64,000 nucleotides of DNA. Origin: a virus. This document shows positions 5,160-56,584 of this stretch, in pieces. The stretch is taken from the IMG/VR virus record IMGVR_UViG_3300045988_149288; one strand, given 5' to 3'. The position numbers were made by a program, and so were the translations under genes. The first letter of the stretch is position 1. Every line of letters begins with the position of its first letter. The notes beneath the pieces were generated by a model. The model was not told the origin of the DNA. It did no database searches and was given only the letters and a program-made list of their open reading frames with translations.

Positions 5160-6236
5160 CTAACTGAAAAACTCGAACATTGTCGGTCGTTCCAAATTAA
5201 TTTCTTCCTTCGGACCTAACCAACCAGCGATTCTGAACATCGTATCGAAAAGCTGACAGAAAGATTTTCTGAATGCGGTTTCATAGTCAATCTCAAAGTA
5301 TTTATTAAATTCTTGCGGCCAAGATTCGAGATATGCGACTGCTTCAATCGGCGAAGTTTTTCCGTCCATATCCTTGGCTACAATCTTCTGAGATGGCTTT
5401 ACATATACATATCGTAATTTGGAATTATTACGAATCGGGTTATATTTCAACCTGTCCTTAGTAACGATATAGTTGTAGATAATCGAAATCTTTGCACCGA
5501 AAATGAGACCAGTCGGAAGAATCAAACCATGGTCCATGTAATAGTCCATGAGCGTCTCGTATTTCATATCGAATGGCGTCGTATTCATCGCGCTTTCAGA
5601 ATACAGTTCTCTGAATTTGTCCATAGCGATTGTCGTATATTTCGTATAGTTCTTAATACCGATAACCGACGAAATAACGTTCAAATCCGAGCTCTTGAAC
5701 TGGTCATAAACCTTATAGATATATTCCTGCGCTTCTTCCTTACCGATACCATCACAGATTTTGAATGCGAGTTCTTCAGCAGCCGTTTTACAGAAGTCAG
5801 GCATGATCGATTTCTTAATAGGAACGCCCATAATTTTATGCTTCATGTGGTCAAGCGGGTACAATGAACCTTCGCTGTCGATAATGTTACCGATATACAA
5901 CTTCTTGGCAAAACAGAACATGTTTTTGAAGATGTTTTCACGGTTGAAATTAATCTTATTGACAGTATGGAACTGCTTGGCTCGAATGTCGAGAATCTTA
6001 TCGAAGAAACGCTGGAACACGTCCTCGCATTTCTGGAAATAGCTTCGATATTCCTCTTCGTTCGTAATCGATAAACCAGATTCCATCAAACGCTTCTTTA
6101 GCTCAATAATCGAAAAATAAACTGAGTCCGTATCATTATGGATCGCACAGACATCGCGACCTTTCACGACAAGAGGACTCATGTCGTTCATTTGAAATTT
6201 ATCAATCTTTACATCTAATGCTTTCTTAAATTTCAT
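5160..6236 (-). CDS. family-B DNA polymerase, C-terminal cistron (43B-like: motif C, thumb)
   Basis: Motif C HNDTDSVYF; start ATG at 6236 one nt after TAA of upstream cistron (GAGGATTAAAATG with SD GAGGA); first 35 codons of track ORF are out-of-frame overlap. Confidence 0.8.
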   Translation of the reverse strand: MKFKKALDVKIDKFQMNDMSPLVVKGRDVCAIHNDTDSVYFSIIELKKRLMESGLSITNEEEYRSYFQKCEDVFQRFFDKILDIRAKQFHTVNKINFNRENIFKNMFCFAKKLYIGNIIDSEGSLYPLDHMKHKIMGVPIKKSIMPDFCKTAAEELAFKICDGIGKEEAQEYIYKVYDQFKSSDLNVISSVIGIKNYTKYTTIAMDKFRELYSESAMNTTPFDMKYETLMDYYMDHGLILPTGLIFGAKISIIYNYIVTKDRLKYNPIRNNSKLRYVYVKPSQKIVAKDMDGKTSPIEAVAYLESWPQEFNKYFEIDYETAFRKSFCQLFDTMFRIAGWLGPKEEINLERPTMFEFFS

Positions 6237-6237
6237 T

Positions 6238-8445
6238 TTAATCCTCAATACCGAGAAGGTCCGTGTCCTTGTTGAATTCATAAGCATAGATTTCCATTTC
6301 ATCATTACCGCGAAGAACAGTAATCTTTTCATAGAAATCAAACTTATATGTCTTTTCTTCTGTAATAATGGAAACTGTCGAGAATTCCTTAACTACATCC
6401 TTGAGCAAGAACGGAGAAACATAGTATTCATTGAGATTCTTAGTCAACCAGTCTCTCAAGGTAACACGAGCACAACGGCAAATAGCACGAGCAACATCTG
6501 GGTCATACAATGCGAAGCTGTTTGCAAGAGATACACCGTAAACCGAGTTAATGATGAGCTTTTTAGTCATCTGTCGATTATGATACAAATGTTCACCAGC
6601 CTTATCGCCTTTCTTGTGACATTCCTTTTCCTTATTCTTATATACCTTACGTTCTGCAAACACCTGCTTAACAACGTTCGGAAGAATACCGTCATCGCGG
6701 TTATAGAAACCGAGTTCTGCAACGTCTGTCGGAATAACCTCACCTGATTCAATCTGTTCCTTGGTCGGATGAACAACCTTCAATTCCGGAGAGATATGGA
6801 ATTCCATAATGTGGTGCGGATATGACGAGGTAATATCGAAAGACATACAGTCGTCATGTCGACCAGGATAGTCATAGCAATAACCTGCCTTTACCTGGAA
6901 TTCTGGGAACGGATGAGGATCCTTCTTATACGCTTCCCATGCGGCAAGGAAATCCTTTTCAGTTTTCCAATGCTCGAATCTTCTCTGTCCGACAAGTCGC
7001 TTGATTGTATCATAATCATACTTTCCTTCAGTCTGAGCTTCCTTATAAGCATCATAGAAAACACGGAACTTACAATAGTCCTTATAACGTTTTGCGCCCG
7101 GTTCCCATTCAGTGTTCTGGAAGTAATCGTTTCCGTCCTTATCCTTTACGATATAGCAACGTTCGTTTCTCCACCAGTCAACATGATGGTCTTCACGGTC
7201 ATTCAAAACACGGTTGGTCTTATGTAAGAATTTTAAGATATAACCAGTAGTCGTAGGAACCTTCTGTTCAACCTTATCGAGAGTAACAAGGCAATCGAAT
7301 GCATATTCAATAATAAGGTCGAAGAGCTTGTTTTTCTTTTCAAGGTCGACCATAATCATAACGTCTTTTCTGTTATACTTCAGGAAGTTATTACCGTCAA
7401 TCTTGTAGGTTTCAGAAATTGCACCGCTATATTCCAACTTTTGATCATTCAATTCGAGGTTGGCAACATAGTTAAGGGAATACGAAGAAAGAGGCGGATG
7501 AGATCCGAAGACTTCGTACAGTTTCATGTAGTCAAGAGAATACAAACCAGGAATCGTGTACTTCGTTCCAAGTTCAACGTTTTCCATCTTGCGGTCAGTA
7601 ATCTTTTCAGCCACAGGCATCATGCCGAGAGGAGACAGATTCTTTTCCCATTCAACCTTGATGTCGTATTTCTCTCTGAGAACTTCACAACGACGCATGA
7701 TATAGGGAATATCGTATGCGAGCGAGTTCCAACCTGTAATGATGTCAAAATGATTATTGGCGAACCACTTAATCCATTCACGGATAAGTACCATTTCTGA
7801 CTTACAGTACGTATAATTCGGTAAATCCTTCGGGTCATCTGTATATCTGATTGTGCTCCAGGTATAAGATTGACCGGTCTTTGTAGAATAACAAGTAATG
7901 GCGTTAATTGGCCACTGAGCTATTTCAGGAGACGGGAAGTCATAAGAAACGAAACAGCTATCATCATAGGGAAGCCATTTCTGAACTTCAATGTCATAAA
8001 CGAAATACTTGTCATGGTCAAACTTCATATCGAAATCAATAAGACTGATGTCGAGAGTCTTCTTGGTTTTCTTTTCGCAGACCTTAATCAATGTTTCGTC
8101 ATAATACTTACTTCCTGACGCAACTTCAATATCGAAGAAACAGATATTCCATTTGCTCATGTCAACTTGGAGTTCTTCGTTATCGTATAGTTGGTGCATG
8201 TATTTGACTTCTGGACGCAAATTACCTTCACATACGCCTCTAAGACCCATAAGGGAATTACGGTCACTATAATCGAACCGTATCATCGGTGTCTTGTGAA
8301 TGTCAGTAATATTGCTCTTCTTTGAAGGATCCGGCCTGTAGCACCAGTTATGAAATTCAACTTCTTTAAAATCAATATCATCTTGGGCTTTAAAATAGAG
8401 CTTTTGTTTTTTAAAGTCCCAGTAACAATTCTTAAATCCACTCAT
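6238..8445 (-). CDS. family-B DNA polymerase, N-terminal cistron (43A-like: 3'-5' exo, pol motifs A and B)
   Basis: Exo I FFDIEV, Exo II GWNSLAYD, pol motif A DITSSYP, motif B KLIINSVYG. Confidence 0.85.
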   Translation of the reverse strand: MSGFKNCYWDFKKQKLYFKAQDDIDFKEVEFHNWCYRPDPSKKSNITDIHKTPMIRFDYSDRNSLMGLRGVCEGNLRPEVKYMHQLYDNEELQVDMSKWNICFFDIEVASGSKYYDETLIKVCEKKTKKTLDISLIDFDMKFDHDKYFVYDIEVQKWLPYDDSCFVSYDFPSPEIAQWPINAITCYSTKTGQSYTWSTIRYTDDPKDLPNYTYCKSEMVLIREWIKWFANNHFDIITGWNSLAYDIPYIMRRCEVLREKYDIKVEWEKNLSPLGMMPVAEKITDRKMENVELGTKYTIPGLYSLDYMKLYEVFGSHPPLSSYSLNYVANLELNDQKLEYSGAISETYKIDGNNFLKYNRKDVMIMVDLEKKNKLFDLIIEYAFDCLVTLDKVEQKVPTTTGYILKFLHKTNRVLNDREDHHVDWWRNERCYIVKDKDGNDYFQNTEWEPGAKRYKDYCKFRVFYDAYKEAQTEGKYDYDTIKRLVGQRRFEHWKTEKDFLAAWEAYKKDPHPFPEFQVKAGYCYDYPGRHDDCMSFDITSSYPHHIMEFHISPELKVVHPTKEQIESGEVIPTDVAELGFYNRDDGILPNVVKQVFAERKVYKNKEKECHKKGDKAGEHLYHNRQMTKKLIINSVYGVSLANSFALYDPDVARAICRCARVTLRDWLTKNLNEYYVSPFLLKDVVKEFSTVSIITEEKTYKFDFYEKITVLRGNDEMEIYAYEFNKDTDLLGIED

Positions 8446-45619: not shown

Positions 45620-46342
45620 TTATTCTCCAATCATTTTCTTTAAATTCTGAACAGTGTCTTTATATGTTCCACCCGAACTGATAAGTTCAATCCAGGATGG
45701 GTCTAATTTCTGGGTCGTAAAACAAGCGCCAGTAGAAACTTCTTCTTCGAGTTCCGTATATTCTGGGTCCTTATATACTTTTACGGACTCTGGCAGACGA
45801 ACCAGATATGTATTCCTACCGTAAGCTCTCATGGCTTCGATTGTATAATAGACGTTATCCCAGAATTCGTACTTGTTCTTTACATGAGCCGCAATTTCTT
45901 CAAGGCTCCAAAGATATACACGGCCTTCGTTATAAATCGGACCTACCTTGGTCGCATTCGGCTCTTCATCAGTCCATGCGTTTTCCTTATGCGGTCGGAA
46001 TCCAATCTTCGAGAACACTTCGATATTTCTATGAGCTGCACGAAGATATAAACCGTGGAACTGCTTTGCAAATTTCGAATCTGACTTATATTCAGTCCTG
46101 GAATTTCTCAAAACAAGTGACCAGTCGCTATATGCACCGATTCTCCAACCATAGTTATCAAGAAGCTCGTCGAAACCCTTTACGGTGTAGTCAATCTTGT
46201 CGAAAATAGAAGGATCCATTTCGATTACGCTATCCGTCTCGTCGAGAACATAATGGGCAACGTCAATACCGAGCTTTCCCTTCAAGAACCCGACCAGCTG
46301 CTTAGGAGTGGTGGTATGTGTAAGAAATTCAACTAGACGCAT
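45620..46342 (-). CDS. hypothetical protein (paralog of 44804..45619)
   Basis: see above. Confidence 0.4.
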   Translation of the reverse strand: MRLVEFLTHTTTPKQLVGFLKGKLGIDVAHYVLDETDSVIEMDPSIFDKIDYTVKGFDELLDNYGWRIGAYSDWSLVLRNSRTEYKSDSKFAKQFHGLYLRAAHRNIEVFSKIGFRPHKENAWTDEEPNATKVGPIYNEGRVYLWSLEEIAAHVKNKYEFWDNVYYTIEAMRAYGRNTYLVRLPESVKVYKDPEYTELEEEVSTGACFTTQKLDPSWIELISSGGTYKDTVQNLKKMIGE

Positions 46343-46674
46343 TCTTTACCTATAATCAACTTTATATTCTTCTTGATTTCATATGTCAGTGAATCAGGAA
46401 CTATTGGAAGAACCTTGATTGTACTGTCGTCGATAATCATTGTTACATGGCTGTTTCCGAAAATGTAGTAGAAGTTGATTTCTGTTCCTCTGTCTTCCAC
46501 TGATAACGAAAGTGCTTTAGTGTCTTTATTCTCGTTAGTCCTCGACATGATAACATTACGGTCGTGAATCGACTTGTTCATATCCGTAAAAACAGTCTTG
46601 ACATTATTGTAATTAATTGATCGCCAGTTTATATTGTCGTTCATATCATATTTATAAGTGGACAAAAATCCCAT
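46333..46674 (-). CDS. hypothetical protein
   Basis: 113-aa ORF. Confidence 0.3.
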   Translation of the reverse strand: MGFLSTYKYDMNDNINWRSINYNNVKTVFTDMNKSIHDRNVIMSRTNENKDTKALSLSVEDRGTEINFYYIFGNSHVTMIIDDSTIKVLPIVPDSLTYEIKKNIKLIIGKECV

Positions 46675-46700
46675 TTTTATAAATATATCAGTGAGGATTT

Positions 46701-47966
46701 ATGAAATTAACAGAAGCTAAAAAAATACTTGTGGAATATGGATATTTGCTTAAAGAATATTCGCCGCATCAAGAAACATATAGCCATGACAGTGAAGGCT
46801 GGGATGAAGCCGAAAAGCGTTTTAAGGCCGGTGCAGACTTAGTAAAAAAGAAAATTGATTCTTTGGACCTCGAAATTACTTCTGAAAATATGTCAGAACC
46901 CGCTCCGATGAATGATACATGGAATTATACCGTTAGGGCTAAATCTGATAATAATCTGACTTATTATTTTTCATTCCATGAAACTAAGCCAGAACGTCTT
47001 AAAGGAAAAGAAGATGTTAAAGGCGAGATGTATGATTACCGTTATTACGTATCTGTTGACGGTGCAATCAATAAGACTCTTTCGCCTGAAAAATCTTTTG
47101 AAAATTCTATAGATTGCGCTAAAGAAATGATAAATGCGATTGATTCCGTGATAAATATTGATACTTCTGGAGTAATTGCGGTTGCTGATAAGATTAAAGA
47201 TGAGTTAGACCCTTGGACTGCAAAGGGATATACAGTAAATGTTAAGATAAAAGAAGCAAATTATGGACATAATAAAGACTACGAAACATTCCTTGACATC
47301 ATTGTACAAAAGAAACTCAGTGACGAAGTTAGGAAATATACATATCAGGGATTTTCTGAACATTTGGCTGTAGCTTTCACCATTAATGGTAAAACATTAA
47401 AATGGAATATTTCTGCTATAAGAGGACATTCTCCGGAAACGATTTCCGCTGATGAAGGTTCTCTTGATAAAATGACTGAATTGATTCAGAAATATGTTCT
47501 TATAAAATATAATGAAATGCTGAGATCGATGAGCGATTCCAAGAAGCGTGCCAATACAGTCAAACCAGATAATTCTAATAAGAAGAAAGCGCAAGCCCGT
47601 CTTAAAGCACACATAGAGGACTTACTCGAAACCGATCTTATCGGTAATTTCGATAAGGCAGTAGAACTTAATAAGGATTACGTCAACGCCATAATCATGA
47701 AACCTGTTGCAGAAGCAGTAAATGATTATGTATATGATAATTACAGTGACGAAGACGGTAGCGTAGGTACTTGGGATGCTGATGACGCTTGGGATTATTT
47801 CGATGATGACTTTGTTGGTTATATCGAAAAGGAATGGAACGGTAGTATTAAGGACTATTGTGATGAATCCGATATTACAACCCTTGACGAATTACAGGAA
47901 GATGTAAAAGAAAATTGGGATTGGGATAGACCAAGCGAAAGTGCATTAGAATACGACCCATATTAA
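46701..47966 (+). CDS. acidic hypothetical protein (421 aa)
   Basis: plus-strand ORF preceded by TTTTTATAAATATAT...GAGGATTTATG and followed by a terminator. Confidence 0.45.
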   Translation: MKLTEAKKILVEYGYLLKEYSPHQETYSHDSEGWDEAEKRFKAGADLVKKKIDSLDLEITSENMSEPAPMNDTWNYTVRAKSDNNLTYYFSFHETKPERLKGKEDVKGEMYDYRYYVSVDGAINKTLSPEKSFENSIDCAKEMINAIDSVINIDTSGVIAVADKIKDELDPWTAKGYTVNVKIKEANYGHNKDYETFLDIIVQKKLSDEVRKYTYQGFSEHLAVAFTINGKTLKWNISAIRGHSPETISADEGSLDKMTELIQKYVLIKYNEMLRSMSDSKKRANTVKPDNSNKKKAQARLKAHIEDLLETDLIGNFDKAVELNKDYVNAIIMKPVAEAVNDYVYDNYSDEDGSVGTWDADDAWDYFDDDFVGYIEKEWNGSIKDYCDESDITTLDELQEDVKENWDWDRPSESALEYDPY

Positions 47967-47984
47967 TAGTTAATAAATTATAAA

Positions 47985-48015
47985 ATAAAAACCGGTTAAT
48001 TATAACCGGTTTTTA
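47985..48015. terminator. bidirectional terminator
   Basis: aaaaccggttaattataaccggttttt. Confidence 0.65.
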
Positions 48016-48057
48016 TTTACTTGTCTCGTTTTACAAAAATCGTAAATCCAAGGAAAC

Positions 48058-49107
48058 CTAAGAAATCAACATTTGTTTTTTATTTAAACTGTTTAAAAAA
48101 TTACTACCATATTTAAAATTCACATAATCCAAATATTTATCACAGTTTATAATTATTTTAACATTATGTTTTTTCATACAATCATATTTAGCTGCATCTT
48201 TCGTATTTTCAATTAACATTTTTTCATATAAAAATTTTGATTTTATTTCAACAAAAGTATTAAAAACTTTAAAATCTGGAAAATAATAATGTTTTTTATT
48301 ATTCCAATAATATTCAAATTTTTCTGTATGATATTCAAAACGTACATTATGATCTTTTAAATAAATGTAAAATGCAACTTCCCAGCTGCTATCAAACCAT
48401 TTATTATCATAAATATATTTAAACTGTGGCGAAACTGAATTATATTTTTCCATACATGTATTAAACTGTTTTTCTCTAACAACAGCTGCTTTCCATGGAT
48501 GATTAACACCATAATTTTCTAGCCATGTTTTTGCCCGCTTTTCACTAATTTCTTTATTATTTAATGAACATTTATCACCATAACGTTCAATATTAGTATT
48601 ATACATTTTTTCTAAATTATTTACCCATGGCTTATTATATTTTTCTAAACATGTTTGTATAGATTTTTCATGAAAAACTTCTCGATAATTTTCACCATAT
48701 TTTTTAATATTAGTTTTATGTAATTTTTCTTGATTATTATAATTTCTATTTCCATATTTTTCTAAGCATGTTTTATATTGTCCTTTTTCCCGTAATTCTT
48801 TTGAAGCCCAATTATGTTTTACTCCATATTTAGCTAAACATGTTTCTTCTGTCTTTTTACGAACTTCAGGACTATTATGTATTTCTTTAGATATACAATT
48901 TTTACAAATAAATGGAAATTTGAAAAATGTATCAGCTCTTCGAGATACAATAGAATTACATCGTTTACATTTAAATTTAACATGTAATCGATTTACTGAT
49001 TTTATTTTTGGAAGAGTATTAAATAATTCAAAATTATTATTATTGACAATTATTAAATCATTATCTTTTTCAAAATGATCTAGTATTATTTGAATTTCTT
49101 TTTTCAT
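48058..49107 (-). CDS. homing-endonuclease-like protein: Zn finger + repeated KYG modules + PD-(D/E)xK-like C-domain (AT-rich)
   Basis: Five to six repeats of (C/N)LEKYGxxxx; C-terminal YFPDF...VEIK nuclease-like; paralog of 53173..54093; RBS enclosed by IR. Confidence 0.5.
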   Translation of the reverse strand: MKKEIQIILDHFEKDNDLIIVNNNNFELFNTLPKIKSVNRLHVKFKCKRCNSIVSRRADTFFKFPFICKNCISKEIHNSPEVRKKTEETCLAKYGVKHNWASKELREKGQYKTCLEKYGNRNYNNQEKLHKTNIKKYGENYREVFHEKSIQTCLEKYNKPWVNNLEKMYNTNIERYGDKCSLNNKEISEKRAKTWLENYGVNHPWKAAVVREKQFNTCMEKYNSVSPQFKYIYDNKWFDSSWEVAFYIYLKDHNVRFEYHTEKFEYYWNNKKHYYFPDFKVFNTFVEIKSKFLYEKMLIENTKDAAKYDCMKKHNVKIIINCDKYLDYVNFKYGSNFLNSLNKKQMLIS

Positions 49108-49154
49108 ATATTACCTCAGTTATTAGTTATTAGTATGCTGCAACATACTATATT

Positions 49155-49220
49155 ATTTATAAAAAGTTAGACTGACCTTGCAGGGTCAGTCAAGTGTAAC
49201 TGAGGTAACACCTGTCCTTT
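49155..49220 (-). promoter_or_regulatory. cassette B: hairpin + CTAACTTTTTATAAATA + RBS-sequestering IR
   Basis: tatttataaaaagttag + gactgaccttgcagggtcagtc + cctgtcc; IR TAACTGAGGTA (49198-49208) vs TACCTCAGTTA (49112-49122). Confidence 0.5.
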
Positions 49221-50366
49221 TTATGATTTACGTCTTACGCAAATCGTAAAACCAAGAAAAGCTATTAAATATAAACTAGCTAAAATTAAGTATAATATAT
49301 TACCCGTAAAGGTATTTGCAAGAATTACAGAAGTTATACCAGCTAAACCCCAACCAGAAAGTGTCATTGAATGAACAGTTGATAAACAACTATCACCAAA
49401 TTGCTTAGCTAATAATGATGGCAATACAGAAAAATTACCGCCATATGCAAATTCACAGAATAATATACCACCTACCAATAAAACCGGATTTTGTGTATAA
49501 CATAAAAATGCGCCTAAAATACCAATAGTACATATAACATTATAGCTTCCTTTTCGTCCAATATAATCACTGGCCGTACTCATTCCAAATCGACCGCCGA
49601 CATTTGCAACAGCGGTAGCAGCCATGAGTGAAGCAATAGCAGTATATCCAGCATTTAAAAATAAGCTTTTTTCCTGTGAAATCAAAGCGAGTCCGCACGT
49701 AATGTTGATAAAGAACATGAACCAGATGGAAATATATTCTTTCGTCAGGAATTTCGCTTTCCATAGGTTCTTATAAGGAACAGCGGTATAGATGGTCGAA
49801 ATAAATGCAGGATTCGGTCTATATAACCAGGAAGAGAAAGACATTACTACAAGGAAAATCAGTCCCATGAGCAAGAATACAACAGGCAACGTAAAGTTTG
49901 CAAGCAAGTATTCAATCATAGGTGCTGCAACAAATTTACCAAGACCGAAACCACAAATACTTAATCCACTAAAAAATCCTTTATGATTTTGAGATAATGA
50001 TAATAATTGTTTAATGGGCGACGTATAACCTATACCAGTGCCGGTTCCCATAAATGAACAACCAATATAATATAATGGTAAAATTCCGGTATAAGATGCA
50101 AATGAGATAGTTAATAATCCTATTGCAAACAAAATTGTTGAAACTATCGCCATTCGTTTAGGAAACATTTCAACGAATCTTCCAAAAACAGCCGCACCCA
50201 TACCAAGGAAGAAAATAATCAATGTAAATCCAATATCAGCGGAGAACTTTGAAATATTAAAAACCTCCATGATATTTTTAGCATATTGCGAATAATTATA
50301 TACACTTCCTAAAACTAATGGAATAAAAATTCCTGGTAAAACAATATTAAATAAATCTTTTTTCAT
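49221..50366 (-). CDS. major facilitator superfamily transporter (10-12 TM)
   Basis: MFS motif-A-like GRFVEMFPKR and DYIGRKG; 12 hydrophobic segments; AT-rich; flanked by cassettes B and C. Confidence 0.65.
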   Translation of the reverse strand: MKKDLFNIVLPGIFIPLVLGSVYNYSQYAKNIMEVFNISKFSADIGFTLIIFFLGMGAAVFGRFVEMFPKRMAIVSTILFAIGLLTISFASYTGILPLYYIGCSFMGTGTGIGYTSPIKQLLSLSQNHKGFFSGLSICGFGLGKFVAAPMIEYLLANFTLPVVFLLMGLIFLVVMSFSSWLYRPNPAFISTIYTAVPYKNLWKAKFLTKEYISIWFMFFINITCGLALISQEKSLFLNAGYTAIASLMAATAVANVGGRFGMSTASDYIGRKGSYNVICTIGILGAFLCYTQNPVLLVGGILFCEFAYGGNFSVLPSLLAKQFGDSCLSTVHSMTLSGWGLAGITSVILANTFTGNILYLILASLYLIAFLGFTICVRRKS

Positions 50367-50377
50367 AATGCAATATT

Positions 50378-50446
50378 TATATATTTAAAAAAGTTAGGGT
50401 AATGCCGCAAACATTACCCAAGCGCTACGGAAAACGCCTGTCCTTT
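50378..50446 (-). promoter_or_regulatory. cassette C (no RBS-sequestering IR evident)
   Basis: atatttaaaaaagttag + gggtaatgccgcaaacattaccc + cgcctgtcc immediately after stop of 50447..50815. Confidence 0.45.
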
Positions 50447-50815
50447 TTAATTAAATGCCTTCGCTGTCATATCTTCGTCATAAAGTTCTTTATACTCATG
50501 CATAAGTTTCAAATTGAAATGCCAATATGGATCTTCTGCATTATCATATTCGATTTTTCCTGTACACTTGTATTCTTCCTTAGGAATATCCCAATAAATA
50601 TCGAGTCCGCCATCTAATTCTTCGATTTTGAGACTAATATTTGGAAGTATTCCATAAGGGTCAAAGATATGCCCGAAAAATCCAGAAATCTGTCGAGAAA
50701 GATATAATACATTATTGCCATTTACTGGTTTTATCAATGCATTATAAATTTTACGTCTGAATTCAATATTATTATCATCGACTATATTACGCCATTCATC
50801 TTGTGTCATTTTCAC
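50447..50815 (-). CDS. hypothetical protein
   Basis: 122-aa ORF. Confidence 0.35.
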   Translation of the reverse strand: MKMTQDEWRNIVDDNNIEFRRKIYNALIKPVNGNNVLYLSRQISGFFGHIFDPYGILPNISLKIEELDGGLDIYWDIPKEEYKCTGKIEYDNAEDPYWHFNLKLMHEYKELYDEDMTAKAFN

Positions 50816-51591
50816 CTCGTCTTATAACCAAAGGGCACCATTTCGGCCTTTATGAATTCTTTATATTTATTCAAACCAATTTCGTTAATTACCCAATTTT
50901 CATCGACTGGTTTTTTAAAATCATAGACAGGTACACAGTCATATTTTGAGTGTTGATTGAATTTATAAAGATAATTCAGAAACATTGCAATGTCGGTATT
51001 GCAATAATCGATAAAATTCTGACATTCAGTTTTGGTAGCAAATCCAATATACTGATTTTTGAGTTTTAAGGCACTTTCGGGGACATTTTGGACTGGGGTG
51101 TATCTTTCCTTGGATAAAAGTGTACACCAGTCCCAGGCTCGTCTATGGCCTCTTATATCGCTTAATTGGATATACCAGGTATTCTTCTTTCCCTGTTCAG
51201 TTCCGATAGTCTTTTTTCCTATTAAATAAGCGTCAACTATCTTCGTAATTTCCTTATATTTCTCAGGATCCGAAAATCTGTTGAATCTGAGGTCATAAAG
51301 GTCAAGTTGCTTCTTGTCGAACTTGAAAATACCGACATCTGAGAAAAATTCGGCATCATCAAACTTTGCATCTCCGACGACAGTCTCAATACGACTGAAA
51401 GACTCGAATCTTTCGTTAAGAATCGAAATATGCTTGTTATTGATATTTTCCTTGATACGATGGTTGTCAACAAAATCTGTAGGTACTAGCCAGACAGCGG
51501 AATCTGTGAACTTCTCACATTCCGACATTACTTTGAGGTAGAACTTTTCACCTTTACCAATATAAGGAGGATTTCCGATTATCGTAAACAT
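50812..51591 (-). CDS. N6-adenine DNA methyltransferase, C-terminal piece (motif IV NPPY onwards)
   Basis: Begins MFTIIGNPPYIG (gamma-class motif IV, cf. M.TaqI FDLILGNPPY). Confidence 0.65.
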   Translation of the reverse strand: MFTIIGNPPYIGKGEKFYLKVMSECEKFTDSAVWLVPTDFVDNHRIKENINNKHISILNERFESFSRIETVVGDAKFDDAEFFSDVGIFKFDKKQLDLYDLRFNRFSDPEKYKEITKIVDAYLIGKKTIGTEQGKKNTWYIQLSDIRGHRRAWDWCTLLSKERYTPVQNVPESALKLKNQYIGFATKTECQNFIDYCNTDIAMFLNYLYKFNQHSKYDCVPVYDFKKPVDENWVINEIGLNKYKEFIKAEMVPFGYKTR

Positions 51592-52010
51592 TTTAAATTA
51601 CTTTCAGTTTCAAGATTGGAAGCAAGTTTCAAAAAGTCCGCGTCTGTATTTATGGTTATCGACCAGTCCCTGCATTGAACTATATCGTTTCGTTTGAAAA
51701 CGACATCACATACTTCTGGCATGATGTCATAAACTGGTTTTTCACGTGTATTATAAATCGCTTCATACTTTTTGGAGCAAATACCGATTCCAGCATACAT
51801 GTTGGGAAATTTGAACATTCCCCAGACACATGGACGTCGACCAAGATTGTCTGTATAATCCTGACTTGAAAAATGACAAATAAGCGGAAGCTGATGATAA
51901 TACACTGACTTCTTTATTTTTTCATTACCTCTTAGAATGGTAATTTTGATTTTATTTTTATTTAAGAACACACTCAGTCTCCAAATTGTGAATAAATTTT
52001 TGAAATGCAT
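51579..52010 (-). CDS. small protein, tandem paralog 3 of 3 inside split MTase
   Basis: C-terminus RNDIVQCRDWSITINTDADFLKLASNLETESNLK conserved with two neighbours. Confidence 0.4.
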   Translation of the reverse strand: MHFKNLFTIWRLSVFLNKNKIKITILRGNEKIKKSVYYHQLPLICHFSSQDYTDNLGRRPCVWGMFKFPNMYAGIGICSKKYEAIYNTREKPVYDIMPEVCDVVFKRNDIVQCRDWSITINTDADFLKLASNLETESNLKCLR

Positions 52011-52293
52011 AATTAGAATCTAATTTAATTGTCCATCCACGACATGAAACGGTATCGCCTTTAAAAAACTCTGCAGCCTTGATATAAAATGGTAGAGTTC
52101 CAGCCATGAATTCTTTATATTCATCTTTATACAATATTACAAACTTGACATAATTACCATTATTGTCATACTCATACCAGCTAAGACAGGTATTATTTAT
52201 CTCTGAATAACAAACATAGAAAGCTTTTGATTTGTTTTTACGTTTAATCCGAACCTTTATTGCTCCAAGTACATATTTTTTACTGCAATACAT
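51958..52293 (-). CDS. small protein, tandem paralog 2 of 3
   Basis: KGDTVSCRGWTIKLDSNYAFQKFIHNLETECVLK. Confidence 0.4.
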   Translation of the reverse strand: MYCSKKYVLGAIKVRIKRKNKSKAFYVCYSEINNTCLSWYEYDNNGNYVKFVILYKDEYKEFMAGTLPFYIKAAEFFKGDTVSCRGWTIKLDSNYAFQKFIHNLETECVLK

Positions 52294-52714
52294 TTTCCAT
52301 CTCCAAATTGTTTACAAGTCTGTCAATATCGCCGCTAGTTTTGATTTCAAGTGTCCAAGTAGGAAATACAACAGTATCTCCACGCTTGATAATATATGTT
52401 GCACGGTCTGGAGTTAACAAACCATAAAAATACCCAGTATTACTTCTATCGATTTCACTTACGGGAATATACTGTACACCAAGGGCATATTTTTCATCTG
52501 GCGGAACATTAGTATGTGGTTTGCCCATCATTAACATGTTTAAATAATCCATAGTGTCTCGCCATTTTTCGGTCAAATCTGGATTATATTTTTTACTGGT
52601 GAAAACTTCTATTCTAAACCAGGGCGCATATTCGACTCTGCTTGAATGTCCGTTTCTAATTACAGTAAACAAAATAGGCTTTGCATGATTTTCAGTAGTA
52701 TCGATAGAACACAT
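52280..52714 (-). CDS. small protein, tandem paralog 1 of 3
   Basis: RGDTVVFPTWTLEIKTSGDIDRLVNNLEMENVLQ. Confidence 0.4.
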   Translation of the reverse strand: MCSIDTTENHAKPILFTVIRNGHSSRVEYAPWFRIEVFTSKKYNPDLTEKWRDTMDYLNMLMMGKPHTNVPPDEKYALGVQYIPVSEIDRSNTGYFYGLLTPDRATYIIKRGDTVVFPTWTLEIKTSGDIDRLVNNLEMENVLQ

Positions 52715-52722
52715 TTGGCCTC

Positions 52723-53172
52723 CTAAGAAACGAATTCAGCAAATCCGCTATTCTTAATATCGGATTCGTTTACTTCTTCCTTTGGCTTCCAGTTTTCAAA
52801 ATCCCATTTGAAAAAGTCAGCACATACAATATTACGGTTTACAATCTTTGCGTATTCAGGTCCAACAATCTCAAGAATTCGTCTTACACATAAATCTCTG
52901 TTATCCTGCATGAGTTCAACACCATAAAGTGTCTTTACCGCATCTTCTGTTGAAATACCTGAAGCAAGGCGTTTTTTTAACATACCTATTAAAATTTGAC
53001 CATTTCCTGCACAAGGATCTAGAAATTTTGCTTTAGGATCTTTCCATTTAACTTCCGGAATTTTGCTAATCATTTGGTTAATAACAGAAAATGGAGTAAA
53101 TACTTCTCCATTTTTCTTTATACGTTCTTTATCACGTATTATACCGTCATTATTTGTAAACAAATCACACAT
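52723..53172 (-). CDS. N6-adenine DNA methyltransferase, N-terminal piece (motifs X, I-III)
   Basis: GEVFTPFSV (motif X), FLDPCAGNGQIL (motif I FxGxG), CADFFKW (cf. M.TaqI ADFLLWEP) then stop before motif IV. Confidence 0.65.
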   Translation of the reverse strand: MCDLFTNNDGIIRDKERIKKNGEVFTPFSVINQMISKIPEVKWKDPKAKFLDPCAGNGQILIGMLKKRLASGISTEDAVKTLYGVELMQDNRDLCVRRILEIVGPEYAKIVNRNIVCADFFKWDFENWKPKEEVNESDIKNSGFAEFVS

Positions 53173-54093
53173 TTAATCTCTCTCTAAAATGATATTCTTT
53201 ATAAAAGATAGCATATTATCTTTATTTTGTAAATAGTCATTTTCTTTAATTCTTATTAACGTAATACCCAATGATAAACATAAAGCATCTTTTTTAGCAT
53301 CACGTTCCCAAATATCTTTAGCTAATGTATTTTCAATAAAATCTGTTTCTTTATAAATGTTTGGGTCAGCATGCCAATATCTGCCATCATATTCAAATGC
53401 TATTTTTAATTCTGGCAAATATATATCTAATTCTCTACCTTTTAAAATGGATCTATCATGCGCTATTATATTACCGTTATAAAATTCACATATCCAAGAA
53501 TATATTTCAAATTCTGCTTTTGAACCAGCTAAATGTTTTTGTATTTTATTTGCTATTTTTTCTTTAACTTCTGGCCATTGAAATGGATTTTCGAAGCCAT
53601 GATTTTTTATATTTGTAGCCTTTATTTTTTCTCTATTAAAATTTTTACCAAATTTTTTACAGGCTTCTTCAGAATGATAATTACCGTTATGTTTCATTCT
53701 TCGAGTTTCTTCTTGTTTTTTACGATTTATTGGATCTGCAAAATTTGAACTATAACCACAATGTTTAATAAATGTATTTACTTTCTTTTCTTTAATTATA
53801 GAAGATTGTGATGGATTTTTTACACCATATTTTTTAAGACATGTATTTTCACGTTGTAGTTTTTTATTTGGGTCTAACATCTGACATTTAACAGAACAAA
53901 ACTGTCTATATCCTGTAGAAATATTAATATAATGTGTTTTGTTATTGCAATCTGGATTATGACAAATATCTTCATTTTCTCGCTTTAGATATTTATCATA
54001 ATATTCTTTACTTTTTAATTTATGAACTGACTTTAAATGACATACCAATGTATGAAATTTGTCAAATTCGCTATTGCAAATTTTACAATACAT
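53173..54093 (-). CDS. homing-endonuclease-like protein: C2H2 Zn finger + KYG repeats + Vsr/DUF559-like PD-(D/E)xK domain (AT-rich)
   Basis: C-terminal ELDIYLPELKIAFEYDGRYWH; N-terminal CKICNSEF..H..H; adjacent to split MTase; RBS enclosed by IR. Confidence 0.55.
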   Translation of the reverse strand: MYCKICNSEFDKFHTLVCHLKSVHKLKSKEYYDKYLKRENEDICHNPDCNNKTHYINISTGYRQFCSVKCQMLDPNKKLQRENTCLKKYGVKNPSQSSIIKEKKVNTFIKHCGYSSNFADPINRKKQEETRRMKHNGNYHSEEACKKFGKNFNREKIKATNIKNHGFENPFQWPEVKEKIANKIQKHLAGSKAEFEIYSWICEFYNGNIIAHDRSILKGRELDIYLPELKIAFEYDGRYWHADPNIYKETDFIENTLAKDIWERDAKKDALCLSLGITLIRIKENDYLQNKDNMLSFIKNIILERD

Positions 54094-54139
54094 ATTTACC
54101 TCGTAATTTTAAAATATTAATTTCCTAGATTAATTTTAT

Positions 54140-54210
54140 TATATTTATAAAAAGTTAGCCAGGAACTAGGAATTCCTGGCAAGCACTACGAGGTATGCCT
54201 GTCCTTTTGT
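54140..54210 (-). promoter_or_regulatory. cassette D: hairpin + CTAACTTTTTATAAATA + RBS-sequestering IR
   Basis: atatttataaaaagttag + ccaggaactaggaattcctgg + gcctgtcc; IR CTACGAGGTA (54186-54195) vs TACCTCGTAA (54097-54106). Confidence 0.5.
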
Positions 54211-54222
54211 TTTATTTATATA

Positions 54223-54996
54223 TTATCTGCCCTTTGTAAAGCGATGATGACATTCATACTCCTGTTCAAAAGCATGATCAACACTATTCAACATATCCAG
54301 ATTATTGATAATAGCCGGAATAGTACCTTCTTTAAATTTCTTTGCGTCATCTGATGTTTTTAAAGAAAGCAATGCATGTAAAATATGGAAAAAACATTCA
54401 ATATCTGTCTTGTCTGAATCTTTTGTAATATACGGTGTTGTTTTGGACGCTCTGACTTTATTCTGAATACTATACACACAGTTTCTGACCATATTCAGTT
54501 TTCCAGAATTTTTATTTACAGTTTCTTTTCGCGAGTTATTATTCCTATAAAGACAGAAGTACATTTCATAACCTTTTGATGTAGTTTCCATCTTCGTCTT
54601 GTCTTTCAAATAATATACATCTTCAGTAATGACATAATCTGCAATAACATTTATAATAACGTCATTATCCGGATGTTTTACCTGGAATACAATCGTTGAA
54701 TATACAAGATTGTCTTGTAAATTTGACTTATCTACATAATATACGAAATTGCCATCTTTATCTACATGCCGTTGATTATCATCTTCTATCGGTGCTCTAA
54801 AAGCGGATAGGTCATAACCACATATTTCAACACCGTTATCTGCAAACAATTTGACTATCCAAGAAACATCATTGGATTTACTTGTCAGTTCTTTCTTAAC
54901 TTTCTTAACCTGTTCAATAACGTGTTGATGAATAAACACTTGCTCATCGAGACAAGCATTAATATCTTTTACAAGTTGTTTATCCACATCTTTCAT
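54223..54996 (-). CDS. hypothetical protein
   Basis: 257-aa ORF. Confidence 0.35.
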   Translation of the reverse strand: MKDVDKQLVKDINACLDEQVFIHQHVIEQVKKVKKELTSKSNDVSWIVKLFADNGVEICGYDLSAFRAPIEDDNQRHVDKDGNFVYYVDKSNLQDNLVYSTIVFQVKHPDNDVIINVIADYVITEDVYYLKDKTKMETTSKGYEMYFCLYRNNNSRKETVNKNSGKLNMVRNCVYSIQNKVRASKTTPYITKDSDKTDIECFFHILHALLSLKTSDDAKKFKEGTIPAIINNLDMLNSVDHAFEQEYECHHRFTKGR

Positions 54997-54998
54997 AA

Positions 54999-55406
54999 TT
55001 AACCGGGCAAAGAATCCAAAGCTTCTTCTGTTTCACTCTGTTGTACTCGCAAATAGATATTGCGATAATCAATGACGTTTTCGTAGATTGCATTAAATAC
55101 GGTCTTGATGTCTCGCAATTCTCTGCTGTTAAACCAGATAGTAAAAGAATCAGCACTACGTTGATTTCCATTACATAGAATCATGCATTGATTATGAAGT
55201 TCAATGCAAAGCTGATTTCCGGGAATATGGAAAAACTTCGAACGTTCAGGACGAATAAAACCGTGATGAATCATAAAAGAATGAACAGTGTCGTGAACTT
55301 CGTCAGAAAACGGAATGGCATCACTTATCGTATTAAGGAAATAAGCATGCTGTTCAGCCGGTGTCATTTCCCTAAAACTTTTTATTTCTTTTTTCTTTCT
55401 AGCCAT
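54999..55406 (-). CDS. hypothetical protein
   Basis: 135-aa ORF. Confidence 0.35.
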   Translation of the reverse strand: MARKKKEIKSFREMTPAEQHAYFLNTISDAIPFSDEVHDTVHSFMIHHGFIRPERSKFFHIPGNQLCIELHNQCMILCNGNQRSADSFTIWFNSRELRDIKTVFNAIYENVIDYRNIYLRVQQSETEEALDSLPG

Positions 55407-55407
55407 A

Positions 55408-55986
55408 TTAATCCAGCTTTTTAAGAGTTTTAATCACTTGCAAATTTTTCTTTGCCATTGCACAAACATATTCTTTATATTTTGTGTAATCTTCTTCAGT
55501 TACGATATTAGATAAACCGTCAACCAATAAGAAGAAAGTATCGACCTTTTCAGGTTCAGTATCTGCGAAGATTTGGATAAATGGAGTTTCCTGTGTAGCA
55601 CGAGCATAATAGTATTTTGCACTATGCTTCTTGCTGACAAATCCGGTCTTGTGACGGATAGTCAAATACAGCTTATTCTGTTTATCTTCTTTCTTCGAAG
55701 CCGAGATATTGTAATTCAGAACGACCGGATGTTCAGAATCTTTCTTACGAATATGAATAGACGAAATTTTGTTTTCGACATACGTATTCTGAATTATTGG
55801 TTGTTCGATTTCGTGATAAACGATTTCATAGCCTCTTGAAGTGATGAGATTTTCAAGAGTTTCGGCGTCTGCCTGATTTTTCGTAAAAATACCTTTATAC
55901 CGTTCAATGGAACGGTCACGCATATCATTGTAGTATTTCTTGATACGCTCAATATTGTCATCTATGATACTTGAAAAACGTGCCAT
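55408..55986 (-). CDS. hypothetical protein (paralog of 55988..56584)
   Basis: GYEIVYHEIE...ISSIHIRKKD...LYLTIRHK vs GYKIIGYSMF...VSLVIQKGDG...YYMTLRGK. Confidence 0.35.
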   Translation of the reverse strand: MARFSSIIDDNIERIKKYYNDMRDRSIERYKGIFTKNQADAETLENLITSRGYEIVYHEIEQPIIQNTYVENKISSIHIRKKDSEHPVVLNYNISASKKEDKQNKLYLTIRHKTGFVSKKHSAKYYYARATQETPFIQIFADTEPEKVDTFFLLVDGLSNIVTEEDYTKYKEYVCAMAKKNLQVIKTLKKLD

Positions 55987-55987
55987 A

Positions 55988-56584
55988 CTAATCCAATGAG
56001 TTAAGAAGGTTTAAAGTTTTCATGTCTTCACGAGCCTTAAAACAGATACCTTGAGAATAATGTTCAGAACTCTGAGTTTGACGAACTTCTTCCATACCGT
56101 TCAGCAACGTAAAGAAAATATCCTTCAATTCGCGACAACTGTCTACACGAATATGACAACGCGGGCGAGCATTCATCGCATTCAGCATTACTAGTTCCTG
56201 TTCTGCCCAATCATCGCTATATTCCTTGTTATACATAGTCTCGTCAAACTTTCCGCGTAACGTCATGTAATAACGACCAGTCTTTTTCTTATTGTTACTG
56301 GCAATATCGACATGATGCTTGATTCCGTCGCCCTTTTGGATAACAAGAGAAACACGGTTAGATTCGAAATTAAACATTGAATAACCGATAATCTTATAAC
56401 CGTATTCTGCCAACATGTCGTTGAAGCGAATAATCTGTTCCTTGTAGATTGCTTCAAGTTCTACGCTTCTAACACGTTTTGATTCGATGACAGCCCGAAG
56501 AGACTGGATCTGCTTTTCGAGTTTTTCTTCATCGCGATGAAATGCGGCATTGACTGAATCTAAGAAATTATTATACATGACCAT
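55988..56584 (-). CDS. hypothetical protein (paralog of 55408..55986)
   Basis: see above. Confidence 0.35.
   Translation of the reverse strand: MVMYNNFLDSVNAAFHRDEEKLEKQIQSLRAVIESKRVRSVELEAIYKEQIIRFNDMLAEYGYKIIGYSMFNFESNRVSLVIQKGDGIKHHVDIASNNKKKTGRYYMTLRGKFDETMYNKEYSDDWAEQELVMLNAMNARPRCHIRVDSCRELKDIFFTLLNGMEEVRQTQSSEHYSQGICFKAREDMKTLNLLNSLD

Follow-up and report, generated by a model that had tools for sequence, protein, structure and literature searches.

The locus described here probably encodes a naturally two-gene (split) gamma-type N6-adenine DNA methyltransferase, with three small paralogous genes between the two methylase genes and outside the catalytic core; we put the probability of this reading at about 0.6. 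The DNA studied is a 64,000-nt stretch (the window) of IMGVR_UViG_3300045988_149288, a giant gut phage. Motifs X and I-VIII and the recognition domain, which a gamma-type enzyme carries in one polypeptide, are here divided between two genes 1.13 kb apart with separate stop and start codons. Indirect support comes from the motif sets of the two halves, the purifying selection on them, their natural fusion and their adjacency in many genomes. From these sequence comparisons we infer that the two halves assemble into one enzyme. It counts against an obligate pair that the pieces are not always neighbours and that the bacterial, Lak-phage and L018 partners keep their own N half.

The five ORFs described in the earlier note are all on the minus strand, with coordinates and strands unchanged. 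They belong to a unit of seven abutting or overlapping genes with Shine-Dalgarno sequences, which sits between two terminator-promoter elements. The upstream element (54142..54207, minus strand) contains a conserved 29-nt box (AAAGGACAGGC...CGTAG), a 10-bp hairpin, TAACTTTTT and then TATAAATA, which is the T4 late-promoter consensus. The downstream element (50374..50446, minus strand) has the same 29-nt box, two hairpins, TAACTTTTT, and TATAAATA preceding an MFS transporter gene. Both copies of the box in the window are in these boundary elements (2 observed vs. 0.04 expected). The last gene of the unit (50447..50815, minus strand) has a GTG start, overlaps the stop codon of the catalytic methylase gene by 4 nt and encodes 122 aa. 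It is conserved, with 90% identity in L004 and a dN/dS of 0.07, and in L005-L010 a homing endonuclease gene replaces it. At the nucleotide level, none of 50,697 phage records matched the region. A single late transcript, started at the TATAAATA promoter and bounded by the hairpin terminators, would give both methylase proteins through translational coupling of its ORFs.

The N piece (52723..53172, minus strand; 149 aa) is a stand-alone gene for what is probably half of a gamma-type N6-adenine methyltransferase, the half that binds AdoMet. Its motif X reads NGEVFTPF, motif I FLDPCAGNG, motif II YGVEL and motif III CADFFKW, which gives the AdoMet-binding set X, I (FxGxG), II and III of gamma-type enzymes. 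Motifs X and I had been claimed for this ORF before and both were seen, with a Pfam N6_Mtase match at E 1.6e-7 over profile positions 21-96 of 311. The protein ends in a conserved C-terminal tail, WDFENW...GFAEFVS, followed by its own stop codon. This tail is present on split N pieces and missing from both fused forms that were read. The dN/dS of 0.10 indicates strong purifying selection.

The C piece (50812..51591, minus strand; 259 aa) is the putative catalytic half. It comprises motif IV NPPY (residues 7-10), the next strands and a C-terminal domain (residues about 113-259) common to Eco57I-family methylases. Judged by its motifs, it appears to hold the motif IV, catalytic sub-domain and C-terminal recognition domain of a gamma-type enzyme. 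The ORF had been said to begin exactly at motif IV, and it does: the protein opens with MFTIIGNPPY, and an in-frame stop two codons before the ATG leaves no space for an N-terminal half. A Pfam search with the C-piece protein of the window alone gave no match, and Pfam Eco57I matched 32 of the 49 members of its family. The dN/dS of 0.04 indicates very strong purifying selection, and NPPY is invariant.

Neither the single N-piece sequence nor the single C-piece sequence matched PDB sequences, and family profiles were needed to reach solved methylases. The N-piece profile matched the N-terminus of M.BseCI (residues 11-92, E 8.8e-4), and the C-piece profile matched the CamA adenine methyltransferase in its motif III-IV-V region (E 1.2e-4). 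In the profile check proposed in the earlier note, each half thus matches a solved gamma-type adenine methylase over its own half only. Some C-piece homologues are 330-470 aa long. The idea that their N-terminal extensions are diverged N pieces was rejected at the level of detectable homology (hhalign probability 0.1%); through a family profile the same extensions align to the motif II-III region of CamA.

Three small genes, all on the minus strand, lie between the two methylase genes. P1 (52280..52714, 144 aa) has an AGGAGG Shine-Dalgarno sequence overlapping the N-piece stop codon. P2 (51958..52293, 111 aa) overlaps P1 by 14 nt, and its Shine-Dalgarno sequence is a GGAG inside the P1 codons for 'NLE'. 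P3 (51579..52010) overlaps the C piece by 13 nt and encodes 143 aa from an ATG at 52010 or 130 aa from a GTG at 51971. The GTG is more likely the true start, because a GGAG lies 7 nt upstream of it, the resulting 14-nt overlap is that found at P1/P2, and some relatives are called so. The shared C-termini pointed out in the earlier note proved to be real: P1-P3 are homologous over their last 35-45 residues, with pairwise BLASTP E values of 6e-7, 3e-7 and 9e-9. We considered whether the conserved 'NLE' is a mere Shine-Dalgarno footprint. GGAG lies within the 'NLE' codons at two junctions, and P3 keeps the motif with CTT GAA. This codon choice and the 35-45-residue homology mean that a footprint explains the conservation only in part.

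The paralogs have a conserved C-terminal module (a hairpin and a helix) and a variable N-terminal part; the AlphaFold2 model of P1 has a pLDDT of 76.5 and a pTM of 0.70. Pfam found no domain in the three inner ORFs, and the paralogs gave no profile match and no fold match. No sequence or fold similarity was seen to HsdS-like recognition domains, DNA mimics or anti-defence families. Reading them as DNA mimics or DNA binders by charge was uninformative, as their pI is mixed (4.8-9.6). They form an orphan family of 10 database clusters. By comparison of the loci, the paralogs appear to be a clade-specific, fast-evolving family that occupies the slot between the methylase genes and is genetically tied to the catalytic piece.

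The gene directly upstream of the N piece (53173..54093, minus strand) encodes a free-standing homing endonuclease of 306 aa, and its stop codon abuts the N-piece ATG. A homing-endonuclease-like gene had been suspected at this position, and the identification is borne out by a match to PHROG 3339 (E 1.7e-31) and by relatedness to F-LimX-like genes of Dickeya phages. Its N-terminal part matches DUF7487 (Pfam E 1.1e-7). The C-terminal part resembles Vsr/PD-(D/E)xK nucleases, and its assignment to PD-(D/E)xK rests only on weak Pfam matches (MTES_1575, 0.025; DUF2726, 0.051). Homologues occur in 197 phage records, several per genome. The gene is missing at this site in L004 and L015, both of which are still split, and L005-L010 have a 33%-identical homologue downstream of the C piece. 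Both this presence/absence polymorphism and its sequence membership place it with the F-LimX-like free-standing type. Its presence varies at the borders of the cassette and not inside.

The same methylase family was found in many other genomes. Diverged relatives, with 45-98% protein identity and contigs of up to 415 kb, have the same five-gene layout. We found 256 N-piece homologues, and roughly 80 relatives of the C piece; among the 120 matches listed, all are stand-alone proteins of 86-155 aa. A stand-alone AdoMet half without such paralogs occurs at hundreds of phage and bacterial loci. At no fewer than 47 of 80 bacterial loci, the gene for a half-protein of 215-290 aa overlaps the beginning of a gene for an NPPY methylase of the Eco57I family, about 500 aa long; Riemerella columbina DSM 16469 is one example of this pair. 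The half-protein has a canonical GxG motif I, and motif I of its partner reads K-S-G or K-x-G in 43 of 48 cases. No curated family or name was found for this bacterial half-protein. Cyanophages and Klebsiella phage PKO111 have the N piece and a separate NPPY piece as adjacent, overlapping genes. The gene order in cyanophages, Klebsiella phages and Lak phages is opposite to that of the window, and the two methylase pieces of a Lak phage and of L018 are 1.1-1.5 kb apart. Both homologues are fused in Aeromonas phages, with the NPPY piece followed by the X-I-III piece. This is a circular permutation, in which the polypeptide runs from the motif IV strand to motif III. A natural fusion is also present in a Paludibacteraceae-binned contig. 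The NPPY partner retains its own N-terminal half in bacteria, the Lak phage and L018; there the half-protein may act as an accessory and not as a missing half. In L013/L016, L023, L024 and L109/L110 the 6.5-10 kb around the C piece contain no N piece, and in L017 and L019 the 8 kb around the N piece contain no C piece. The split appears to be ancient and family-wide, an old two-part layout common to many phages and bacteria.

One candidate explanation in the earlier note was a mobile insertion that had inactivated the methylase. As considered here, an intact gamma-class gene would have been broken by a mobile paralog cassette or by the homing endonuclease, and the pieces would be decaying remnants. 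A split at the motif III/IV loop and an endonuclease gene abutting the cassette speak for it. Decay is contradicted by the intact motifs, by the dN/dS values of 0.10 and 0.04 for the two pieces, and by an arrangement that is kept across relatives, and in distant phages and bacteria the halves are as a rule encoded separately. The endonuclease gene does not lie within the pair, is missing in L004 and L015 and lies elsewhere in L005; neither an endonuclease gene between the halves nor an intact gene in relatives without the endonuclease was seen. A search of relatives for an intact orthologue found no N-to-C single gene with a canonical N half. No direct or inverted repeats bracket the paralogs, and the only meaningful repeat brackets the seven-gene unit. 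Rfam gave no intron match in 50300..54300 at E up to 1, and Pfam found no intein or Hint domain in the inner ORFs. We therefore regard the broken gene as hardly credible. Because the AdoMet half stands alone in hundreds of paralog-free phage and bacterial loci, the split is not due to the small genes. The two-subunit enzyme offered as the other explanation is supported by the comparative evidence as to its two subunits, but the three small genes did not make the split.

In the split enzyme that we favour, the N piece (149 aa) would supply the AdoMet-binding sub-domain, with helix X and strands 1-3, and strand 4 with its NPPY catalytic loop, the other strands and the domain for DNA recognition would come from the C piece (259 aa). 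The two proteins would associate non-covalently, probably via the conserved C-terminal tail of split N pieces, to complete the seven-stranded sheet. The complex would methylate adenines in phage DNA and so protect it from host restriction. A different view is that the pieces are not one enzyme at all, the N piece being an AdoMet-binding accessory or regulator for other partners and the C piece a non-catalytic DNA-binding protein or a partner of the paralogs. This would suit the pieces that are often far apart, the bacterial partners that retain their own N half, and an artificial N+C fusion model that was not confidently folded (pLDDT 62; a weak model, built from a block alignment). It is difficult to reconcile with the natural fusions in Aeromonas phages and in the Paludibacteraceae-binned contig, with an invariant NPPY in a C piece under very strong constraint, and with a C piece that has no strands 1-3, which to our knowledge every Rossmann-type methylase needs. 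We judge it quite improbable.

The three paralogs are predicted to be expressed with the catalytic piece and to lie outside the catalytic core; their role could be accessory to the catalytic subunit, or that of unrelated counter-defence or host-takeover cargo. In every arrangement sampled they were seen only upstream of the C piece, also where the N piece is not nearby. They are directly upstream of it (one gene removed in L024) and usually translationally coupled to it. This persistence across differing neighbourhoods would fit interchangeable methylase subunits, whose C-terminal hairpin and helix would dock on the C piece while the variable N-terminal parts alter specificity, assembly or regulation. 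In alpha-class methylases the recognition domain is at the position in the motif order that matches the paralog slot. Such subunits are unlikely, however, as the paralogs are found in none of the other lineages of the split enzyme and so are not a core requirement, the C piece already has an Eco57I-family C-terminal domain, one decayed copy (in L015) and single-copy genomes exist, and the paralog charges are mixed. Of the embedded accessory module put forward in the earlier note, the constant linkage to the C piece keeps an accessory function possible, but a core role is not supported. If the paralogs were subunits, the enzyme would be modular and multi-specific. Distinctly unlikely is the version in which each paralog serves as an exchangeable third subunit, docked on the catalytic half, and gates or re-targets an adenine methylase of three components. 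In that case a single split enzyme would be served by a small, fast-diversifying set of specificity or assembly factors carried by the phage, at the protein level a counterpart to multispecific Bacillus phage methylases with their tandem recognition domains. Unrelated cargo, duplicated in tandem in a hyperplastic slot as in T4-like variable regions, is a possibility that we rate somewhat below even. The paralogs evolve fast, with 38-56% identity between genomes whose C pieces share 81-94%, and are under weaker selection than the methylase pieces (dN/dS of 0.22-0.33 for P1, 0.35-0.56 for P2 and 0.20 for P3). Their copy number varies from 1 to at least 5 across loci, with one copy decayed. In L011 the slot contains, besides family members, at least 7 small ORFs that do not belong to the family, and in L018 the two methylase pieces flank a paralog pair of another kind. 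The orphan status of the family and the low GC of the region (an island of 28-34% vs. about 40%) point in the same direction. Against cargo, the strict linkage to the C piece survives the change of all other neighbours, and neither a fourth copy in the 64-kb window nor a copy at any other locus examined was found.

M.AquI and M.EcoHK31I are naturally heterodimeric DNA methyltransferases whose two polypeptides must associate (PMC3404938, PMC2836561), and M.HhaI, M.SssI and M.BspRI have been split artificially; fragment complementation is well established for the methyltransferase fold. The locus in the window resembles M.AquI and M.EcoHK31I in probably having one methyltransferase fold as two polypeptides. 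That group methylates cytosine at C5 and is split inside the variable region or beyond it (motifs I-VIII vs. IX-X, or IX alone), whereas the putative enzyme here is N6-adenine and Eco57I/TaqI-like, is divided between motifs III and IV in the middle of the Rossmann sheet, and has other genes between its two genes. Amino-methyltransferases fall into the permutation classes alpha, beta and gamma, for whose origin duplication or fission and fusion have been modelled (PMC3320104; bioRxiv 10.1101/2023.12.13.571470). In the portions of PMC3320104 on which we draw, DNA methyltransferases are placed under the duplication model, and independent halves are what the review would expect to see after fission and fusion. 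The break point in the window is the one by which the gamma order (X, I-III, IV-VIII) and the beta order (IV-VIII, X, I-III) differ. The beta-order fusion of Aeromonas phages is a sequence relative of gamma-type enzymes and not a member of the classical beta class.

Genes in pieces are also known from T4-like phages, where nrdA is split by mobE in Aeromonas phage Aeh1 and the T4 topoisomerase genes 39 and 60 are associated with mobA. A further source on such genes is bioRxiv 10.1101/2022.08.31.505936. In these cases and in the window alike, a T4-like phage has a two-piece enzyme that presumably reassembles, and the locus includes a homing endonuclease gene of the free-standing type. Unlike in those cases, the endonuclease gene of the window does not separate the pieces, and its presence at the flanks is polymorphic; the split is older than the endonuclease and also bacterial, and no intact orthologue was found in close relatives. 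The bacterial half-methylase/Eco57I pair shares with the window the N-piece family, the gene order (half first) and the Eco57I-type catalytic and C-terminal domains. In the bacterial pair, however, the two genes overlap directly and the NPPY protein has an N-terminal half, whereas in the window this half is gone and three paralogs lie between the genes. Multispecific methyltransferases of Bacillus phages have tandem recognition domains, and the HsdS proteins of Type I systems are specificity subunits. Both provide a conceptual model for the paralogs, which are likewise tandem, related, variable modules beside a methylase. The paralogs differ from them in lacking sequence or fold similarity, in being separate small proteins and in accompanying a catalytic piece with a recognition-type domain.

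One sequence family contains separate halves in both orders, halves spaced by other genes and a fused, permuted form. Together these forms are the signature to be expected if fission and fusion took place. Duplication is the usual explanation of the motif orders of DNA amino-methyltransferases (PMC3320104). If fission and fusion were the route here, the family would be the first natural series to document it between the gamma and beta motif orders. Should a two-protein adenine methylase split between motifs III and IV work, it would provide a natural template for split, targetable m6A writers, which so far have been built from cytosine methylases. A half-methylase beside an Eco57I-family gene is common in bacteria, and annotation pipelines call it methyltransferase or hypothetical, missing its half-enzyme nature. 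For the giant gut phages, the paralog array is a compact orphan family in which new restriction-evasion factors may reasonably be sought.

The two methyltransferase pieces carry the motifs that the earlier note had assigned to them. The N piece (52723..53172, minus strand), the AdoMet-binding half of a gamma-type N6-adenine methyltransferase, contains motifs X (GEVFTP) and I (FLDPCAGNG) and also motifs II (YGVEL) and III (CADFF). Its match to Pfam N6_Mtase is limited to profile positions 21-96, and its family profile matches M.BseCI within the first 92 residues. The catalytic C piece (50812..51591, minus strand) indeed starts at motif IV (MFTIIGNPPY), with no coding room upstream; its family profile matches CamA over motifs III-V, and Pfam Eco57I was matched by 32 of 49 C-piece homologues. 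The three ORFs between the pieces, P1 (52280..52714), P2 (51958..52293) and P3 (51579..52010), all on the minus strand, are mutually homologous as proposed, over their last 35-45 residues (pairwise E 6e-7 to 9e-9). No further copy was found elsewhere in the window.

From 54093 to 50447 on the minus strand, seven ORFs adjoin or overlap: the homing endonuclease gene (53173..54093, 306 aa), the N piece (149 aa), P1 (144 aa), P2 (111 aa), P3 (143 or 130 aa, by start), the C piece (259 aa) and a trailing ORF (50447..50815, 122 aa). The endonuclease stop directly adjoins the N-piece ATG, and the N-piece stop is overlapped by AGGAGG, 4 nt ahead of the P1 ATG. P1/P2 and P2/P3 overlap by 14 nt (P3 starting with GTG at 51971), with GGAG 7 nt upstream of the P2 and P3 starts; the overlaps are 13 nt for P3/C piece and 4 nt for C piece/122-aa ORF. 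A regulatory cassette, consisting of a conserved 29-nt box, hairpin(s), TAACTTTTT and TATAAATA, the last being the T4 late-promoter consensus, is present at both ends (54142..54207 and 50374..50446, minus strand), and the two copies bracket exactly the seven-gene unit. Because of the tight junctions and these bracketing copies, the unit reads as one putative, translationally coupled late transcription unit. The regulatory cassette is similar to mobile promoter/stem-loop cassettes known in T4-type phages. It is also found at L005:2140-2210, a locus from a relative, ahead of an alternative homing endonuclease gene, and is missing in L004, an endonuclease-free relative.

We compared the unit with relatives L004, L015 and L005. 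The dN/dS values were 0.04 for the C piece, 0.10 for the N piece, 0.07 for the trailing gene and 0.20-0.56 for the paralogs. The order N piece, three paralogs, C piece also occurs in L004, L015, L005-L010, L105-L108 and L111. These genes are alive and keep their layout. A mobile insertion that broke the methyltransferase, one explanation offered in the earlier note, is contradicted by the low dN/dS of the pieces, the conserved layout and the family-wide split. Searches for an Rfam intron, an intein-like domain or repeats flanking the inner genes were all negative. The ORF directly before the N piece is, as had been suspected, a genuine homing endonuclease gene. L004 and L015 lack it at this position, and in L005-L010 a 33%-identical homologue is located downstream of the C piece instead. 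The endonuclease gene is a mobile passenger at the edges of the methylase gene set and not the cause of the split, which is a family trait rather than a local accident.

Other phages arrange the halves differently. PHROG 11371 (383 positions) matches the C piece over positions 122-243 and the N piece over 282-383. In Aeromonas phages, ZPAH1 orf67 (387 aa) and CC2_106 (383 aa) each form one polypeptide. ZPAH1 orf67 runs from the motif IV strand (FDYVIMNPPY) to motif III (HKDFLKV), a circular permutation of the window gene order. P-SSM2, S-SKS1 and Klebsiella phage PKO111 have an NPPY/NPPF piece first, and an N-piece gene overlaps its end. PKO111 gp114 (L021:288-2223 = gp114/gp115) joins a GIY-YIG-like N-terminus (YVYMILINKNVVYIGKG) to the NPPF catalytic piece; after a 14-nt overlap comes a stand-alone N piece, annotated as DNA methyltransferase. 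In Lak-B6 and L018 the NPPY piece again comes first, and 1.1-1.5 kb separate it from the N piece. In L018 (5723-8459), with this opposite gene order, ORFs of 168, 61 and 267 aa fill the interval; the 168- and 267-aa ORFs have a common C-terminus, SP(E/A)WTELKL, and form a second paralog pair between methylase halves, unrelated to the window paralogs. N-piece homologues were 86-155 aa in all 120 listed of 256 matches. An exhaustive C-piece search gave 79 relatives, some standing alone (250-280 aa, starting at NPPY) and others (330-470 aa) extended by a short N-terminal stretch without canonical motif I. When an intact orthologue was sought, no N-to-C single gene with a canonical N half was found among N- and C-piece relatives, which places the window at one end of a series, its NPPY protein being entirely without its own N-terminal half.

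A prokaryote scan with one genome per species gave 152 relatives. In 47 of 80 kept loci, spread over many phyla, a half-protein of 215-290 aa (stop-to-stop ORF length) directly precedes an Eco57I-family methylase of ~500 aa, mostly overlapping it. In the half-protein, motifs X and I-III are present and GxG is canonical; in the partner, NPPY lies near residue 200, and motif I was K-S-G or K-x-G for 43 of 48 partners. This pair is widespread and without a curated name (Riemerella columbina L101:2986-5122 and ~46 other bacterial loci, L035-L102), and its half-proteins have a common C-terminal peptide, e.g. EFPPIHYLKL. Split N pieces have conserved C-terminal tails: G-h-x-E-F in giant phages, GVLKF or GVEQFF in cyanophages and a P-x-H-Y-L-K-L type in bacteria. 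The fused ZPAH1 protein is without such a tail. We infer that the tail may be a docking element. A model of N and C pieces as an obligate pair is weakened because they are not neighbours in several relatives, and because the bacterial, Lak and L018 partners retain an N-terminal half.

The paralogs diverge far faster than their neighbours (38-56% identity vs 81-94% for the C piece). Those of L004 are one-to-one orthologues of the window set in identical order, so the triplication predates the window/L004 separation. One family member lies upstream of the C piece in L023, L024 and L109/L110, three in the window, L004 and L013, three in L015 (the third decayed to 59 codons) and at least five in L011. 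In L011 (785-4992), twelve small ORFs fill 4.2 kb between the methylase pieces and five score as family; several others have N/H-N-L-x-x-E-x-x-L-like ends, a hint of a wider superfamily that has a C-terminal helix in common. With the family HMM, all members found lie upstream of the C piece, separated from it by one gene in L024, and this linkage persists even where no N piece is present within 6.5-10 kb and every other neighbour differs. It is the sole evidence for a functional tie of the paralogs to the catalytic subunit, and a role as accessory to the methylase, or as its specificity subunit, seems unlikely. Since the family is absent from every other split-methylase lineage examined, it is not a core component of the methylase. 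That the paralogs are unrelated fast-evolving cargo occupying a plastic slot is a tentative reading, at somewhat under even odds.

A T4-related giant phage is the source of the window, which encodes UvsX, a family-B polymerase, RNA ligase and NAD ligase. The deposited phages searched included no near relative, and relatives are present on metagenomic contigs of up to 415 kb. The polymerase is a second enzyme in pieces in this genome (5160..8445, minus strand), its ORFs 6238..8445 and 5160..6341 matching PHROG 262 positions 110-376 and 573-742, respectively. A major-facilitator-superfamily transporter gene (49221..50366, minus strand; Pfam MFS_1, 2.5e-22) adjoins the methylase gene set, a placement conserved in L004, L005 and L015. 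The methylase gene set, transporter gene and endonuclease gene lie in a low-GC island (46000..56000; 28-36% vs ~40% elsewhere), and ORF 48058..49107 weakly matches the endonuclease repeat region (E 0.002). IS605 OrfB/TnpB-type genes occur on related giant-phage contigs (L017:15165-16358 and L023:4804-5856), the latter ~160 bp upstream of two small ORFs preceding the C piece.

The feature is real and conserved: a probable split or heteromeric methyltransferase, a kind of enzyme already known, plus a paralog array that is an orphan family. Among cytosine-C5 enzymes, M.AquI and M.EcoHK31I are documented natural DNA methylases made of two polypeptides, and fragment complementation has been described for several other DNA methylases (PMC3404938, PMC2836561). 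A limited literature search turned up no natural adenine methylase reported to be divided at the III/IV loop. The window pieces are divided at the very point that distinguishes gamma from beta motif order. Unlike the 'genes in pieces' of homing endonucleases, the window has its endonuclease gene outside the pair, and the split is older. A review of the topic places DNA methylases under the duplication model and names independent halves in related species as the evidence expected for fission and fusion (PMC3320104). Such independent halves, its expected sign of fission and fusion, are found in this methylase family.
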